The position numbers and the translations under genes are program-made. This document shows, piece by piece, positions 4,451 through 43,208 of a stretch of DNA of 64,000 bases; position 1 is the stretch's first letter; each line of letters starts with the position of its first letter. Source of the DNA: Candidatus Moraniibacteriota bacterium (lineage in GTDB: Bacteria; Patescibacteriota; Minisyncoccia; Moranbacterales; GWC2-37-73). A model generated the notes under the pieces. The model saw nothing but the letters and a program-made list of their open reading frames with translations. It did no database searches and had not been told where the DNA came from. The stretch covers positions 160 through 64,159 of the forward strand of contig DAOKZJ010000001.1 of assembly GCA_035325685.1 (NCBI GenBank). The letters are read 5' to 3'.

Positions 4451-4769
4451 CATAAAGGCCTTGGGACACCTGTTTAGCATCAAGGATCAGCGCCATGCGG
4501 AACTTTTGCTCCAAAGGCGCCTCCGCCGGGACGGTTTTCTTTTCGCGCGCATTGCCGTTTCTTACCCAGGCTTGCGCAAAAAGGCGATTCGGCGCATTTG
4601 CGGCCTTAAGGATTGCCGCGCGGATTCCCTGCGCTTCGTCTTGGAGCGTTCTTTGGCTGAAAGAAAGGAACAATGCAAGCTTGCCAAACTCTTGCTGCGC
4701 CTTGACTCGCGCAAAGATACCGCAGAGTTTGTGCGGCGCTGCTTGGTCCAAAACAAAGCCGGATCGTAA
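4431..4769 (+). CDS. Hypothetical protein (112 aa)
   Basis: SD GGAGGaaagca-ATG. Overlaps the upstream gene by 20 nt. A terminator follows. Confidence 0.5.
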   Translation: MTLSERDIKALGHLFSIKDQRHAELLLQRRLRRDGFLFARIAVSYPGLRKKAIRRICGLKDCRADSLRFVLERSLAERKEQCKLAKLLLRLDSRKDTAEFVRRCLVQNKAGS

Positions 4770-4794
4770 TTATCGATCCGGCTTTTCTTTTTTA
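4756..4794 (+). terminator. Rho-independent terminator
   Basis: Hairpin gccggatcg/cgatccggc followed by a T-run (ttttcttttttatt). Confidence 0.7.
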
Positions 4795-5909: not shown

Positions 5910-6061
5910 AGTCCAGGCATGTTTTTAACCGCAAAAAGAAAGCTTTCGTACCTCGCGCGCTTCCCAGCGCCTACGCCCTTCGCCGAATGTTTGACCCTCC
6001 TAAATTATGAATTACTGCCCCCCAGCCATCCGCTGCCGGGGCTTTTTCTTTTTCCCCAACG

Positions 6062-6108
6062 CCCCACCCAAAAGCGAAGCTTTTGGGTAATGGCTCAAAT
6101 AAGGCAAA
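6062..6108. repeat. 47-bp direct repeat, copy 1, containing a GCGAAGC mini-hairpin
   Basis: ccccacccaaaagcgaagcttttgggtaatggctcaaataaggcaaa occurs again at 6765..6811. It carries a perfect hairpin cccaaaagc-GAA-gcttttggg; a third, partial hairpin is at 6112-6140. Confidence 0.85.
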
Positions 6109-6151
6109 TTCCTAAAGCGAAGCTTTTGGAGAAGCTTTAGAGCAAAAAATA

Positions 6152-6190
6152 AAGGCCGGATTATAAATTTAATCCGGCCTTTTCTTTTTT
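6152..6190. terminator. Bidirectional rho-independent terminator
   Basis: aaggccggatt-ataaa-ttaatccggcctt with an A-run before and a T-run after. Could terminate the plus-strand small-ORF run and the minus-strand gene 6621..6247. Confidence 0.75.
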
Positions 6191-6621: not shown

Positions 6622-6764
6622 AAATCCCCCCTTCTTATAAAGTGAAGTGCTCTTATTTTAAAAAACTTCGTCTTAAATCCAAATATTCCTATCCCATCCT
6701 ACACCCGAAAAAAACATATGCAAAGTATCCCTCCTCCCAAAAAAATCCCCATTAATCCCAAAAA

Positions 6765-6811
6765 CCCCACCCAAAAGCGAAGCTTTTGGGTAATGGCTCA
6801 AATAAGGCAAA
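6765..6811. repeat. 47-bp direct repeat, copy 2
   Basis: Identical to 6062..6108. Confidence 0.85.
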
Positions 6812-36847: not shown

Positions 36848-37249
36848 CTATTTCGCTTTGGTAGTGGCGCTGCGCGATTCGGAATAAGAGCTATAACCGC
36901 TGTCTCCCGAAGCTTTTTTGATCTTAACCTTGAACGAGTATTTCACTCCCGGCTTCAAGTCGTCGATCACCAGCTTCTTGCGCCCTTCGTCTTCGCTAAG
37001 CGTCTTACGGTAAGTACGCGTTTCCACCATGCCGGTGGAATTGTCACGAATCCTTACCTTTATGACAACCCTTTCATCCTCCCGCTCCTCGTACTTAAGA
37101 GGAAGCGTTATGCTCGTGGTCGTCCGCTTAGTTATCTCCTTAATCTTCGGCTTGGACGCAAGTGCTCCAGAAAACGGAGCCAACAATATCGTCATCGCAA
37201 AAGCTGAAACCAATCCCGCCAAAGCGACTTTTCTACTTATGCTACGCAT
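36848..37249 (-). CDS. Secreted fibronectin type III-like domain protein
   Basis: Signal peptide (MRSISRKVALAGLVSAFAMTILLAPFSGALA) and an FN3-like strand pattern (LKPGVKYSFKVKIKK). Confidence 0.55.
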   Translation of the reverse strand: MRSISRKVALAGLVSAFAMTILLAPFSGALASKPKIKEITKRTTTSITLPLKYEEREDERVVIKVRIRDNSTGMVETRTYRKTLSEDEGRKKLVIDDLKPGVKYSFKVKIKKASGDSGYSSYSESRSATTKAK

Positions 37250-37456
37250 AAAATTATGTCGCTTTAGGAAATAAAGTCTTTTCCAGGCCGGATACCGACC
37301 TTTGTTTTAATACCCGGACCGAGAAAACGGTTGCAAATGGGCAACTTTTTCTTTCCTTTCCCTTTTGTCCCCTTGCCCCCAAAGACCCAAGGAATTCCTT
37401 TCTTTTCGTTCGTCAGTTATTACAACTGAGAAGCTTTTTTATTTTCCTCAAAACGC

Positions 37457-37482
37457 CAAAAGCGACGAAAAGTCGCTTTTTT
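37457..37482. terminator. Terminator hairpin distal to secA
   Basis: agcgac-gaaaa-gtcgct with T-runs on both strands (the minus strand reads ...cgtcgcttttggcgtttt). Confidence 0.6.
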
Positions 37483-37498
37483 AAAAACAAACCTCTTG

Positions 37499-37598
37499 CC
37501 GACCCCTTTCCTGGCCGCAACAATTAAAAAACCTTCTCACTTCCCGCAGCACTTTTTGAATTTCTTGTCGCTGCCGCACGGACAAGGATCGTTGCGGC
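37499..37598. repeat. 100-bp direct repeat, copy 1 (duplicate of the secA 3' end plus 3' UTR)
   Basis: Differs at one base from 37662..37761. In one minus-strand frame it still encodes ...[19 protein letters not shown]. Confidence 0.85.
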
Positions 37599-37661
37599 GT
37601 CGTTTCGCTCCTTAAAACCTTGCGGTTTTAATATTTCCACCCCGGGAAAACCCAGGTTTTC

Positions 37662-37761
37662 CCGACCCCTTTCCTGGCCGCAACAATTAAAAAACCTTCT
37701 TACTTCCCGCAGCACTTTTTGAATTTCTTGTCGCTGCCGCACGGACAAGGATCGTTGCGGC
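37662..37761. repeat. 100-bp direct repeat, copy 2 (authentic secA 3' end plus 3' UTR)
   Basis: Spans the last ~20 codons of secA and ~38 nt downstream. The copies are separated by a 63-nt spacer that holds the hairpin cgggaaaacc-ca-ggttttcccg. Confidence 0.85.
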
Positions 37762-40324
37762 CTACTGTAGAAGTATTTTTTTGGGGAAGCGTGGCTCCTT
37801 TTTGCGGGGAGACCGCAAATTGCCCCACCTCCTCGTCCGCGCCGCTGTAGCGCAACCCTTCGGGCACCTTTGTTTCCTTGGCCGGCGTTTCCACGCTCAC
37901 TTGACTGATATGGAAAATGGTGCGCAGCACCGTGGTGCGGATGTTTTCTACCAGATGGGAAAAGAGGTTGAAAGCTTCCCGCTTGTACTCAATAAGCGGA
38001 TCGCGTTGACCATAACCTCTAAGCCCTATTCCTTGCCTCAAATAATCTATTTCATCCAAATGATTCATCCAGAGCGTATCTATCGTTTGCAGCAAAATGC
38101 TTTTTTCCACCGAGCGCATCAGTTCCGCTCCGAGCGCGCTTTCCTTGGCTATATAAGCTTCCTTGGCTGCCTGGATAACCTCCCCCGTAAGCGCGGTCGC
38201 TTTTTCGGAATCATTTTTGGATCTGTCTTCCCCGATCGCCTTAAGTTTGACTCTTATCTCCTCCGAAATTGCAAACACTGCCGCCGCATCCGCCGCAACA
38301 CCCTCCGTGTCCCAAAAAGTTCCCTCCCCCCCGGCAATACGTGCCGAAACCATCCGCTCTGCCGCTTCTTCCGTGTATTTAAGTATGTCCTGCTTCACCT
38401 CTTTCTTTTCCAGCGCTTCGCGACGCTTCCGGTATATCACTTCGCGCTGCTTATTCATCACGTCGTCATACTCCAGAACATGTTTGCGCATATCGAAGTT
38501 ATACCCTTCGATTTTGGTCTGGGCGCTTTCGATTGTTTTGGAAATGAGCGCGTTTTGAATCGGTTGATCTTCCGGAAGACCCAGTTTATCCATCATCCCC
38601 TTGAGTCGGTCTCCGCCGAAACGCCGCATCAACTCATCTTCCAGGGAAACATAGAACTGGCTCACCCCCGGATCTCCTTGGCGTCCGGCGCGACCGCGCA
38701 ACTGATTATCGATGCGCCGCGCTTCATGTCTTTCCGTACCGATAATAAAAAGCCCGCCTTTTTCACGCACACCCTCCCCTAATTTTATGTCCGTTCCGCG
38801 CCCCGCCATATTGGTGGCGATAGTCACCGCCCCCATTCTTCCAGCGTCAGCCACGATTGCTGCTTCCCTTTCGTGCTGCTTGGCGTTGAGCACTTCGTGC
38901 CTTACTCCTTCCTTTTTGAGCAATGCGCTCAAATATTCGGATTTCTCGATGGCGATAGTACCGACCAATACCGGCTGCCCTTTGGCATGCACCTCTTTTA
39001 TTCTTTCCACAATAGCGGCAAACTTCCCTTTTTCCGTTTTATAAACCACATCTCCCAAATCCTTGCGGACAAGTGATTTATTGGTGGGTATCTCCAAGAC
39101 ATCCAGTTTGTACACTTTGGAAAATTCTTCCGCACTGGTGGAAGCCGTTCCGGTCATGCCGGCAAGCTTTTCATACATGCGAAAATAATTTTGGAAAGTG
39201 ATTGTGGCCAAAGTGCGGGATTCTTTTTGCACCTCCACTCCTTCCTTGGCCTCGATCGCCTGATGCAAGCCGTCGCTGTAACGCCTGCCCGGCATAAGCC
39301 GCCCCGTAAAGTCATCCACGATAATCACCTCTCCATCTTTCACTACATAATCGCGATCCAGCTTATAAAGCGCGTGTGCACGGAGTGATTGCTCCAGATG
39401 ATGCACATAGTTGATCTTTCCGGGATCGTAAATATTGCCCATGCCTAAGGCATTTTCCACCTTGGCTATTCCGGATTCAGTAAGAACCGCCGCACGCATT
39501 TTTTCGTCCACTTCGTAATCAACCCCTTCCTTAAGGAGAGGCACGATTCCGGCAAAACGCTGGTAGAGTTTGGTCGACTCGCTGTCCGGCGCCGAAATAA
39601 TGAGCGGCGTGCGCGCTTCATCGATCAAGATGGAGTCCACTTCGTCCACGATTGCGAAATTAAGGGGGCGCTGCACCATCTGGGCAAGCGATTGCGCCAT
39701 GTTGTCGCGCAGATAATCAAATCCGAACTCATTATTGGTACCGTAAGTTATATCCGCTTCGTAAGCTTGCCTGCGTGAAACGGGAGTAAGATTTTCCATT
39801 TCCACCGTAACCTCGTCCGCATCCCGCACTTTGGGCTGAAAAAGATAGGAAGCATCATGCATTATGCAAGCCGTCGTAAGGCCCAAAAAATGATAAATTG
39901 ATCCCATCCAGTTGCAGTCACGCCTGGCCAGATAATCATTGACCGTCACCACATGTACTCCCTTGCCGCTCAAAGCATTCAGATAAATAGGCAACGTGGA
40001 GGTAAGGGTTTTTCCTTCCCCTGTTTTCATTTCCGCTATTTTGCCTTGGTGCAAAACAATTCCTCCGATCAACTGCACTTCGTAATGACGCTCGCCGATG
40101 ACCCGCTCCGCCGCCTCACGCACCACCGCAAAAGCTTCCGGCAAAATATCTTCCAGCGTTTCTCCTTTGGCCAGTCTTTGGCGAAACTCCCCTGTCTTGG
40201 CGGCAAGCTCTTCGTCCGAAAGACGTCTTGTCGCTTCTTCCAGCGAGTTTATTTTGCCCGCCAAGGGGCGCAATTTGGCTATCTCCCTTTCGTTTGAACC
40301 GAAAATATTGCTCAAAAATCCCAT
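37700..40324 (-). CDS. secA: Protein translocase ATPase SecA
   Basis: DEAD-like motor domains, preprotein cross-linking domain, and the C-terminal zinc-binding [14 protein letters not shown]. Confidence 0.97.
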
Positions 40325-40389: not shown

Positions 40390-40550
40390 AACCCCAAGCG
40401 CTCCGCACCTCATATCTGGTGCTTGGCATCTTACATCCTCGAACTTGAAACTTAAAGCTCGCGACCAAACCCGCCAGCTCGCTAAAGCATTGACCGTTTA
40501 ATGTGCAACTTTTTTAACTTTTAACTTTTGCCTTTTACCTTTTCACCCGC

Positions 40551-41795
40551 CTATTCCCACCCGCTCATCAGGATGCCCAAATCCTTGGTATTAACTATGC
40601 CGTCGCTGTTTTTGTCCGAAGCGGCGTTGGCAGTGAGCCAAGCAGCAATAAACTGAAGAAAGTCAAAGATGTCATAAGATGCCCCCTGGGAAGAACCGAA
40701 AGTTATCGGATAGCCGCTTGCATTGGCGGAGCCATTGGCGTCTACCACGTAAAGATAGGCAGAAGAGCCATCGGAAAAAGATCCTTGGTTGACACTTATC
40801 TCCAGTGCCGTATCCGCCCATTGGTTTTGGGGTAGTTGGATTTCACAATGACTACTTGCTGCTTTGGTCGAGCTTTCGCATATCTCCACCCTGGCCAAAG
40901 TGTTATCCACGTATATTTCTCCAAAATCTACCGTTGCCGCATCGGGGCTATAATCAAATTCCGGCATCCAGCCTAGGGCGCCTATGCCGTTGATGCTGGC
41001 AAGATTTCCCTCCGAAGCTCCTCCGCTCATACAATCGACTTTGCCCGAATAACAATCTAAAAATTCCTCGTTATTTACAGAAAGTCTTATTCTGGGATGA
41101 TAAGGTAAAGATCCGTTATCTAAAATCTTTTCCATCCTGTTCCAAGCGCCTCTGTTTATAAATGATTCGTGCCAGGCGCCAAACCTGTACCCTTGGGAAA
41201 AATCATAACCGGTAGTGTGCTCCGGCGACCAAATAATGGAAGCAATTTCCCATTGTCCTGTTGGCGTAAATCTTGTAAATTTATTTTGCGAATTATCCAG
41301 GGTACCATTTGCACTCACCCAATTCCACCAAGTAACATACATGCTCTTATTATTCGCTTCAGGAAAAACTTCTCCTCCCACGGCCGCCCATTCATGTGCC
41401 GCGTCAATATTTGAATTTGGATTGTTGCTGTATTTTGCAGTCCATTTTCCCCTGGGGTTTATGGTTTTATAATAGGGGGATTCTCCGGCATAACCTTCGT
41501 TCCAAGGATAACTTGCCCCGACAGGAATCCTATTTCCGTTTGACAAGCCAGCATACATGCCGTCTACCGGGTCCCACTTGAGAGGAGCTACCGGATTTTT
41601 TATTCCAAATCCATTCCCCGAAATTGTCACGCTCTGTCCATGCCGCAAGGCATTGCTCACGCTTGAAATGCTTGGCGCGGCAAAAGCAGTCTGCGCGGCA
41701 AAAAAAGACCCTACTGATATAGCCAAACATATTTTATTACGTAACTCGTTACGTAATAAGTTACGTAATTTCTTTTTCTTCATTTCTATATGCAT
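40551..41795 (-). CDS. Secreted protein with a C-terminal dockerin-like Ca-binding segment (paralog A)
   Basis: Signal peptide, then AAPSISS...GQSVTISGNGFG (TIG-like), a W/G/N-rich body, and the C-terminus SDKNSDGIVNTKDLGILMSGWE. The last ~95 nt are identical to paralog B. Confidence 0.7.
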   Translation of the reverse strand: MHIEMKKKKLRNLLRNELRNKICLAISVGSFFAAQTAFAAPSISSVSNALRHGQSVTISGNGFGIKNPVAPLKWDPVDGMYAGLSNGNRIPVGASYPWNEGYAGESPYYKTINPRGKWTAKYSNNPNSNIDAAHEWAAVGGEVFPEANNKSMYVTWWNWVSANGTLDNSQNKFTRFTPTGQWEIASIIWSPEHTTGYDFSQGYRFGAWHESFINRGAWNRMEKILDNGSLPYHPRIRLSVNNEEFLDCYSGKVDCMSGGASEGNLASINGIGALGWMPEFDYSPDAATVDFGEIYVDNTLARVEICESSTKAASSHCEIQLPQNQWADTALEISVNQGSFSDGSSAYLYVVDANGSANASGYPITFGSSQGASYDIFDFLQFIAAWLTANAASDKNSDGIVNTKDLGILMSGWE

Positions 41796-41891
41796 GTCGT
41801 ATTGATTATTTCGTATTTCCTTTCTGCAACTCTCTACTTGTATCTTGTACTTTTCACCTTTTAACTTTTTAACTTTTAACTTTTCGCCCGC

Positions 41892-43142
41892 CTATTCCCA
41901 CCCGCTCATCAGGATGCCCAAATCCTTGGTATTAACTATGCCGTCGCTGTTTTTGTCCGAAGCGGCGTTGGCAGTGAGCCAATTCACCACTAGTTGCAAA
42001 AAGTCAGAAACAGAATAAGTCTGCGGCTGCGCTTGGCTGCCAATGGTAATTGGATATCCCTGACTTACGGAATTGTTCTGATCCGTCACAAAAAGATAAG
42101 CTGTCGCACCGTTGCTGAAGCTGCCTTGATTGACCGTGAAAGATACCTGGGAACTGTTCCATGCGCTCGGTATCTGGATTTCGCGATGCGTACAGTCCGC
42201 ATAAACCGGCGCATTTCCTATCTCCACCCGCGCCCATGTCCGATCTATATACAAATCGTCTATGTACGCATCCGCGCCGGTATTGGCCGGCATGGAAATA
42301 GGATCACCCGGATCTTCATCAGTCGCCCAATAATGTCCGATGCGTATTTCCGTGGGCAGGACATTGCGCAAACGGAATACAACGGTATTGGAAAAGGGAG
42401 TTGAAGGACGCGAATTTACATAGCGATACATGACCCCGTCGCCCACGCCGGGAGTCGACGTCTTGTAAATGACTTGCTCATGCTTCCAGGTGCCATACAT
42501 GCGATCCTCGTCATTCCAAAGCTCCACGCCCGGTGGCTGCGTCGGATACGCATCATCCCAAATCGCAAAAAGCCCCCCATTTCCGGGCCTGAATATGCCC
42601 GGATTCATTTGCAAAGTTATGTCATTGGTCCACACCCGCCAGGGTTTGTAATTGCGCCCATTTGTCCCGCTGCTATCCAACGGCGTCAAGCGATACCAAT
42701 AATCCAAATACAGTAACGGATAGCCGTTATCGTAATCATTGACACAAAGCGAAACGTTTTCCGTGGCAGGACGAAAGGAATGCTTGCTGGAAATTGAATG
42801 ACCCGAAGATCCGCGTGAAACTTCGGAAGAATAGCGCGCCAGATCGGATCCCGTTCCGCCACTCCAGCCGGTAACCAACTGGCCGGAAGCTCCTTGTTCA
42901 AAATTATCCCAGCGATAAGGAGCGGCGCTGCTCTTTGTTCCGAAATTGCTTCCCGAAACGGTGATTGTCTGCCCTTGCTGGACAGTGCCTTGCAAAGAAG
43001 AGATGCTTGGCGCAGCATGAGCCACATTCATCCCCCAAAAGATTGCGCTCAGCGCACCCAAAAGCGTTCCGCCATATAACAAGCCGGGTAATTTATTTTT
43101 TCTCGCTCCTGTTGCCATAAAAATAGTTGTAGTAGGGGACAT
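41892..43142 (-). CDS. Secreted protein with a C-terminal dockerin-like segment (paralog B)
   Basis: Same N-terminal AAPSISS...GQTITVSGSNFG module and an identical C-terminus. The start is uncertain (ATG 43142, ATG 43118, or TTG 43208). Confidence 0.65.
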   Translation of the reverse strand: MSPTTTIFMATGARKNKLPGLLYGGTLLGALSAIFWGMNVAHAAPSISSLQGTVQQGQTITVSGSNFGTKSSAAPYRWDNFEQGASGQLVTGWSGGTGSDLARYSSEVSRGSSGHSISSKHSFRPATENVSLCVNDYDNGYPLLYLDYWYRLTPLDSSGTNGRNYKPWRVWTNDITLQMNPGIFRPGNGGLFAIWDDAYPTQPPGVELWNDEDRMYGTWKHEQVIYKTSTPGVGDGVMYRYVNSRPSTPFSNTVVFRLRNVLPTEIRIGHYWATDEDPGDPISMPANTGADAYIDDLYIDRTWARVEIGNAPVYADCTHREIQIPSAWNSSQVSFTVNQGSFSNGATAYLFVTDQNNSVSQGYPITIGSQAQPQTYSVSDFLQLVVNWLTANAASDKNSDGIVNTKDLGILMSGWE

Positions 43143-43208
43143 ATATCTTTTTATTTGCACCTTGCCCCTTATCTTTTCTATTATACCACCTCTCCTTGTT
43201 TGACCCAA

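Follow-up and report, generated by a model that had tools for sequence, protein, structure and literature searches.

Composite 163-bp insertion at the secA 3' end in a Candidatus Moraniibacteriota genome: a probable strain-level structural variant

Main finding

The intergenic region between secA and the downstream gene for a fibronectin type III (FN3) domain protein was analysed within a stretch of 64,000 nt (64 kb; hereafter the window) and probably represents a strain-level structural variant, in which an insertion of 163 bp consists of a second copy of a 100-nt secA tail and a 63-nt spacer (S) that is in part FN3-leader sequence, the change being likely neutral. The duplication is very probably genuine and common to several strains; it is young or restricted to one lineage, and possibly polymorphic.

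Layout of the repeat

The coordinates of the features at the locus are collected in Table 1. Read on the minus strand, the locus runs from the body of secA through copy A, S and copy B into unrelated sequence leading to an A-tract, a hairpin and a U-tract, and it is copy A that completes secA, stop codon included, so that the gene is restored at its 3' end. Pairwise alignment of the two copies gave one mismatch over 100 consecutive columns (99/100 identity, same strand), and a repeat search returned a single direct-repeat family at the locus (37484-37598 / 37647-37761, spacing 163). A duplication of the secA 3' end and 3' UTR, with one substitution and the second copy 163 bp further along, had been reported in an earlier note on this DNA, and all of its coordinates proved accurate on alignment. 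The designation as a tandem duplication holds in that the copies are near-identical, close together and on the same strand, but they do not lie head-to-tail, 100 of the 163 nt being repeated and the 63-nt spacer having a separate origin. The secA repeat is the longest near-perfect member of nine repeat families of at least 30 nt found in the 64 kb, and S occurs once in the window with 0 occurrences expected by chance; a chance origin is therefore excluded. No second copy of S was detected with blastn-short in the window or in 86 loci, and the sequence 3' of copy B is unlike the spacer, with matches at 9 of the next 16 bases.

Table 1. Positions of the features at the secA-FN3 locus, numbered from the first nucleotide of the window
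Feature	Position	Strand	Description	Basis
secA CDS	37700..40324	(-)	intact, 874 aa, SEC-C zinc-binding tail, stop TAA	ORF and translation
Copy A	37662..37761	(-)	final 59 nt of the secA coding sequence, TAA stop at 37700-37702, 38 nt of 3' UTR	
Spacer S	37599..37661	(-)	63 nt, single occurrence in the window; holds hairpins 1 and 2	
FN3-leader-homologous block in S	37617..37652	(-)	GGTTTTCCCGGGGTGGAAATATTAAAACCGCAAGGT	local alignment to sister species
Copy B	37499..37598	(-)	untranslated pseudo-terminus; TGA (37537-37539) replaces TAA; contiguous with ancestral downstream sequence	
Probable secA intrinsic terminator	~37450..37482	(-)	AAAAAAGCGAC-UUUUC-GUCGCUUUU GGCGUUUU	9-bp stem in both folds
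FN3 leader, paralogue of the S block	37250..37330	(-)	conserved with sister species	
FN3 gene	36848..37249	(-)	133-aa secreted FN3-domain protein, HMN19007.1 (fibronectin type III domain-containing protein)	

The copies differ solely in the second base of the stop codon, copy A having TAA and copy B TGA, a change that leaves the codon a stop, as only 2 of the 300 possible substitutions would do. This stop-preserving change could hint that copy B was once, or elsewhere, a working terminus; the secA gene of the sister species also ends in TGA.

The C-terminus of the encoded SecA fits the SEC-C zinc-binding motif (Cys-x-Cys...Cys-Cys/His, PF02810), and the protein is identical to P0001 (HMN19008.1), which is named SecA, belongs to a Candidatus Moranbacteria MAG and has precomputed Pfam assignments to PF07517, PF07516, PF21090, PF01043 and PF02810. 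The next-nearest SecA proteins are ~75% identical and also come from Moranbacteria/Parcubacteria, and the best match among GTDB representative genomes reaches 66%. The genes around the locus are those of two secreted paralogues, hpf, murB, FN3, NUDIX and secDF.

The description of copy B as a silent pseudo-C-terminus was borne out by its reading frame. The period of 163 is 3n+1, placing copy B out of frame with secA, and its zinc-finger frame carries an in-frame TAA five codons upstream, with no ATG, GTG or TTG start codon between that TAA and the Cys codons. On these grounds copy B cannot be translated as a zinc finger. Read-through or frameshifting into copy B was considered and rejected, given the 3n+1 period and the fact that in-frame read-through meets a TAA in the spacer after 23 codons, as was use of the spacer AAGGAG as a ribosome-binding site for a mini SEC-C peptide, there being no ATG, GTG or TTG in reach and a TAA preceding copy B. 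The sole ORF that crosses S is 74 aa long, starts with TTG and lies in a different frame, and no record was matched to it in a protein look-up.

Evidence from other assemblies

An ENA contig (ERZ794915 NODE_111, L081; 107 kb, SPAdes-style name, 6x coverage) encodes an identical SecA and shares 99.9% DNA identity with the window, with 9 SNPs in 12.7 kb, so that the two are not the same consensus. In alignment it matches the window identically on either side of the insertion but is without exactly the 163 nt, having a single copy (TAA) joined directly to the terminator region. Two further contigs, both from Logan and each from another run, contain the genes downstream and have their first bases within the repeat. 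The first, SRR2107133_9259, opens with TTTAATTGTTGCGGCCAGGAAAGGGGTCGG followed by CAAGAGG, that is, with exactly 30 nt of repeat and then the C of the downstream sequence. In the strain of SRR12799671_449, position 37498 is G rather than C, so that the downstream sequence has GAA in common with the beginning of S; this contig opens 3 nt further on, with AATTG...GGTCGGGAA followed by G, again exactly 30 nt before divergence from S. Logan contigs are built from k=31 de Bruijn graphs, with every 31-mer distinct in the contig file and bubbles simplified by Minia3 (PMC12424806). Since each 31-mer is present once, a contig end lying k-1 before a point of divergence marks an unresolved fork, and starts at exactly 30 nt (k-1), with a 3-nt shift that tracks the strain sequence, therefore indicate a repeat followed by two different sequences.

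The window and these three contigs (L081, L082 and L085) represent four different haplotypes, and the evidence comes from independent populations. A contig that ends at the start of the repeat would be expected in Logan; when the 414-aa gene upstream was looked up, no contigs other than the three long ones were recovered. From the graph forks it is inferred that the copy-to-spacer junction is present in the reads of at least two further data sets and that the duplication is very probably real, and a pure assembly artefact is unlikely. The earlier note had named long reads with a single copy as the sign of such an artefact; a single copy does occur in the ENA contig, but the forks in the two other runs indicate that the copy-to-spacer junction exists in raw reads elsewhere. 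The L081 form may be a true deletion allele or a low-coverage SPAdes collapse: recombination between the copies downstream of the SNP would yield exactly the TAA and terminator region seen in L081, and multi-k bubble popping at low coverage would alternatively give the same sequence. As short-read graphs cannot separate one unit of copy and spacer from several, the copy number is given as 2 or more.

Distribution among relatives

The closest different species available (L083, Logan SRR24236065; hereafter the sister species), in which the FN3 protein is 95% identical and the DNA 76-86% identical, has one secA tail (CPCGSGKKYKQCHGK, with TGA as its stop codon), lacks S and carries a terminator in the corresponding position. 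The duplication is absent from the sister species and 84 other secA loci; it was not found in 80 more distant secA loci, nor in L095 and L097, two relatives with 75% SecA identity. On this distribution, the single-copy state appears to be ancestral and the duplication to be confined to the species-level lineage of the window. A scan of JGI metagenomes for the exact secA tail peptide followed by the stop gave 0 matches. Three patterns (tail peptide, UTR and spacer) gave 0 exact matches among IMG/VR viral contigs, a result that lends no support to a phage attP origin.

Origin of the spacer

Positions 10-45 of S (37652-37617) align with the secA-FN3 intergenic region and FN3 leader of the sister species at 30 of 36 positions with a local score of 34, a value reached by 0 of 2000 dinucleotide shuffles (17.5 +/- 2.5). 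Two words, TATTAAAAC and GTTTTCYCGGNNNGG, each occur exactly twice in the 64 kb, in S and in the FN3 leader at 37304-37328, and keep the same order and orientation in both places. By these alignments, 36 of the 63 spacer nucleotides are homologous to the conserved FN3 leader and the spacer is not random filler. The core of S matches the FN3 leaders of the window and of the sister species at 20-24 of 29 positions and is roughly equidistant from the two, whereas the repeat copies are 99% identical; gene conversion, a foreign donor or an unsampled intermediate is therefore needed to reconcile these values.

The FN3 leader is ~90% identical between the window and the sister species over ~80 nt, against 76-86% for coding DNA, and is the best-conserved non-coding stretch between the two. 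Parts of the leader also precede distant FN3 homologues elsewhere in other genomes. The FN3 gene is a lineage-specific insertion: in the Moranbacteria L095 and L097, whose SecA is 75% identical, secA is followed directly by NUDIX. The FN3 homologues P0123 and P0124 do not lie beside secA, and the leader travels with the gene. A JGI metagenome scan with the FN3 protein returned only relatives of ~40% identity in another gene context (tRNAs upstream).

Some further observations were made on the FN3 gene and its surroundings. Homologues at ~50% identity lie downstream of an LPG-synthase gene in other genomes, and leader parts (AAAGGTCG...TGGAAAA...GACATAACCATATG) precede distant FN3 homologues in another gene context. 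The leader (window 37250-37330; L083 1270-1354) holds a GGTCGG-TAT-CCGGCC hairpin; the leader as such has no match in Rfam and may have a regulatory role. Downstream of the secA terminator and before the FN3 leader, an A-rich stretch is followed by a small hairpin (~37405-37440, minus strand; L083 ~1160-1195) that is altered on both arms, CAGTT-GTAATA-AACTG in the window and CTGATT-GTAGTA-AATCAG in L083; this region could belong to the FN3 leader or form a small structured RNA in its own right. Further on, a terminator-like hairpin, GTTGCCCATTTGCAAC and CGTTTTCTC, is located at 37330-37345.

Predicted transcripts and RNA structure

Both spacer hairpins described in the earlier note are present in the sequence and in the predicted fold: hairpin 1, CGGGAAAACC-TG-GGTTTTCCCG, at 37643-37664, of which the first 3 nt lie in copy A, and hairpin 2, TTAAAACC-GCAA-GGTTTTAA, at 37612-37631. 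Neither has a U-tract after it, so that secA transcription is expected to run through copy B to the hairpin and U-tract at ~37450-37482, and no convincing terminator was found ahead of that site. The suggestion that secA transcripts cross copy B before reaching their terminator is, judged from sequence, probable. The terminator itself falls just under the T-run rule of the pattern scan, but the sister species has a terminator in the corresponding position. A 13-nt exact inverted match (37221-37233 / 37467-37479; AAAGCGACTTTTC / GAAAAGTCGCTTT) links the secA terminator hairpin to the first FN3 codons, in the signal-peptide region, and could reflect chance or long-range pairing.

The start of the 100-nt unit coincides exactly with that of the 5' arm of an inverted repeat of 12 bp, and GGCCGCAACGAU (GRND codons) pairs with AUUGUUGCGGCC in the UTR to form a predicted stem-loop spanning the secA stop codon. 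An equivalent stem, with two compensatory changes, can be formed in the sister species, but this long-range stem at the secA stop was not recovered in relatives at 75% or 65% SecA identity. Compared with shuffled sequences, the single unit gave weak fold z-scores (-1.6 and -1.4) and the duplicated region a z-score of -3.3, a value expected of a direct repeat that contains an inverted repeat, which inflates the fold score. No sigma-70-like promoter site was found in the spacer by a consensus scan, promoters of these bacteria being poorly defined, and the spacer has no counterpart of the TTGCAA that precedes TATTAA by 18 nt in the genuine FN3 leader. No Rfam family was recovered: the one match, to a eukaryotic lncRNA model, scored 21 bits where the gathering score is 40 and is noise.

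Related Moranbacteria hold the secA stop codon within a short hairpin, in which the ...QCHGK codons pair with their complement just past the stop (L095 3310-3345; L097 3330-3375; L083 1005-1035; for example CAAUGUCAC-GGUAA-GUGACAUUG). L095 and L097 carry short hairpins over their own secA stop codons instead of the long-range stem, and the secA of the window, with its KKCCGK tail, is without the stop-codon hairpin of these relatives.

Proposed origin and alternative explanations

The order of the elements, namely secA tail, FN3-type leader fragment, secA tail again, original terminator, and real FN3 leader and gene, is composite and thereby rules out simple slippage of one unit. In bacteria, intergenic segmental duplications and indels arise by illegitimate or short-homology recombination, and unstable direct repeats are deleted by slippage or RecA. 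The locus resembles such local segmental duplication or indel polymorphism in having close, near-identical repeats that vary between near-identical strains or assemblies, and in that the single-copy form is the expected product of recombination between the repeats; it differs from a local tandem duplication in that the 63 nt between the secA copies come from the nearby FN3 leader and are much more diverged. We infer an origin by local illegitimate or homology-assisted recombination. In this process, a larger segment spanning the secA tail to the FN3 leader could have been duplicated and then shortened by an internal deletion, or a fragment that included the secA tail could have been inserted in a Campbell-type or homology-assisted manner. 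The near-identity of the copies would reflect a recent event or homogenising gene conversion. A counterpoint to a single recent local event is the spacer, which is far more diverged than the 99%-identical copies and would call for gene conversion or a foreign donor. Recombination between the copies could in turn remove the insertion and produce a single-copy allele. The sole predictable effect of the insertion would be a secA 3' UTR ~163 nt longer, with extra hairpins and the same terminator, and the insertion is most likely selectively neutral or nearly so, as argued from its non-conservation and the lack of signals.

Three other accounts of the locus were weighed against such a structural variant. 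That the true genome is single-copy and the assembler mis-threaded strain variants carrying the TAA and TGA alleles is very unlikely, because the 63-nt spacer and both junctions must derive from reads, and single reads would span so short a spacer together with its flanks. The graph moreover forks exactly at the repeat/spacer boundary in two runs, shifted by 3 nt where 3 more nt are common, and the spacer has local homology rather than being foreign junk. In favour of mis-threading are the single copy in the 99.9%-identical SPAdes contig and the nature of the SNP between the copies, which is of the between-strain kind in a population that is clearly multi-strain. The two assemblies, from near-identical populations, also differ by exactly one repeat period, as in short-read repeat collapse or expansion; unlike in an artefactual expansion, the longer form is supported by the forks in two further data sets, and a collapse in the 6x SPAdes contig is a likelier error than an expansion in the window. 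Integrative elements that target gene 3' ends carry a replacement 3' end and leave attL/attR repeats, as is known from islands targeting tRNA and tmRNA genes. An element with the secA 3' end might likewise have inserted here, in a site-specific or Campbell-type manner, leaving attL/attR-like repeats, and then have been deleted nearly wholly, to 63 nt. The duplicated secA segment resembles attL/attR in spanning the 3' end and the stop codon, so that the gene stays intact, and the restoration of a target gene's 3' end by direct repeats is the hallmark of such integrations. The FN3 gene and its leader are themselves a lineage-specific insertion between secA and the NUDIX gene and have homologues elsewhere in other genomes, so that FN3 cassettes move, and the spacer is a piece of such a leader. 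We nevertheless regard an integration scar as unlikely: no integrase or mobile-element gene was seen beside the locus among the ORFs and called genes, the repeats enclose no element body but just 63 nt, neither a viral- or plasmid-like match nor an exact viral-contig match was obtained, and precise excision leaves one copy, so that a second, internal deletion must be assumed.

A role as a functional RNA, which the earlier note had raised as a cis-acting UTR element or an sRNA in the making, was found to be unsupported, the duplication being absent from the sister species, from other relatives and from the 99.9%-identical assembly and having neither a promoter-like site nor an Rfam match. In bacteria, sRNAs derived from 3' UTRs include CpxQ and SroC, and the extended, structured secA 3' UTR is like these in using the mRNA's own terminator; it is unlike them in that neither an internal promoter nor a processing site is in evidence, and in being neither conserved nor matched to a known family. 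Such a role could take the form of a duplicated stem module and spacer acting as a 3' UTR stabiliser or regulator, or of an FN3-leader-like block driving a copy-B sRNA that ends at the secA terminator. Consistent with either form, the repeat coincides with the predicted GGCCGCAACGAU/AUUGUUGCGGCC stem-loop, for which the sister species has two compensatory changes, the fold of the duplicated region scores better than those of shuffled sequences (z = -3.3), the spacer reproduces a section of a conserved leader with the -10-like hexamer TATTAA, and the duplication is found in at least three haplotypes. A functional RNA is improbable all the same, given a fold score inflated by a repeat with an inverted repeat (z = -1.6 only for a single copy), a stem that was not recovered at 75% or 65% SecA identity, a spacer without the -35-like TTGCAA of the FN3 leader, no promoter in the scan, no Rfam match, and the absence of the element from the sister species and one near-identical assembly. 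Highly improbable is a more elaborate proposal in which the 100-nt unit would be a functional, stop-spanning secA stem-loop that was duplicated with an FN3-leader fragment and kept identical by gene conversion, giving a regulatory 3' UTR module or a new sRNA with a secA tail that could couple secA and FN3 expression.

Implications

The duplicated secA tail is probably an ordinary structural variant. As a composite of a gene terminus and the leader of a neighbouring gene copied together, it provides a small example of intergenic reshuffling in reduced CPR genomes. The secA 3' region differs between assemblies by one repeat period, which is a caveat for primer design, strain typing and UTR analyses, and users of the locus should note that both forms exist or one assembly is collapsed. 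If the stem-loop were functional, it would give an uncommon view of how a 3' UTR evolves in an uncultured lineage, but nothing here argues for it.

Other repeats in the window

Just upstream of secA, the minus-strand genes at 40551-41795 and 41892-43208 are tandem paralogues of 414 and 438 aa with signal-peptide-like N-termini and an identical C-terminal ...ANAASDKNSDGIVNTKDLGILMSGWE. Their 3' ends and ~43 nt downstream form a 171-nt repeat (40508-40678 / 41849-42019; 83% identity overall and ~95% over 132 nt), a second instance in this window of the duplication of a gene's 3' end along with the flanking sequence downstream. A 56-nt direct repeat (6053-6108 / 6756-6811; 95% identity, 703 nt apart) holds the hairpin CCCAAAAGC-GAA-GCTTTTGGG, and a similar pair of terminator-like hairpins, 70% identical, is located at 4750-4793 and 6147-6190; both are probably repeated intergenic modules between small tandem genes. 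Positions 1-465 of the window contain a 30-nt periodic repeat, with nine 45-nt copies in register at 62-73% identity, which presumably codes for a protein of 10-residue repeats running off the window edge.
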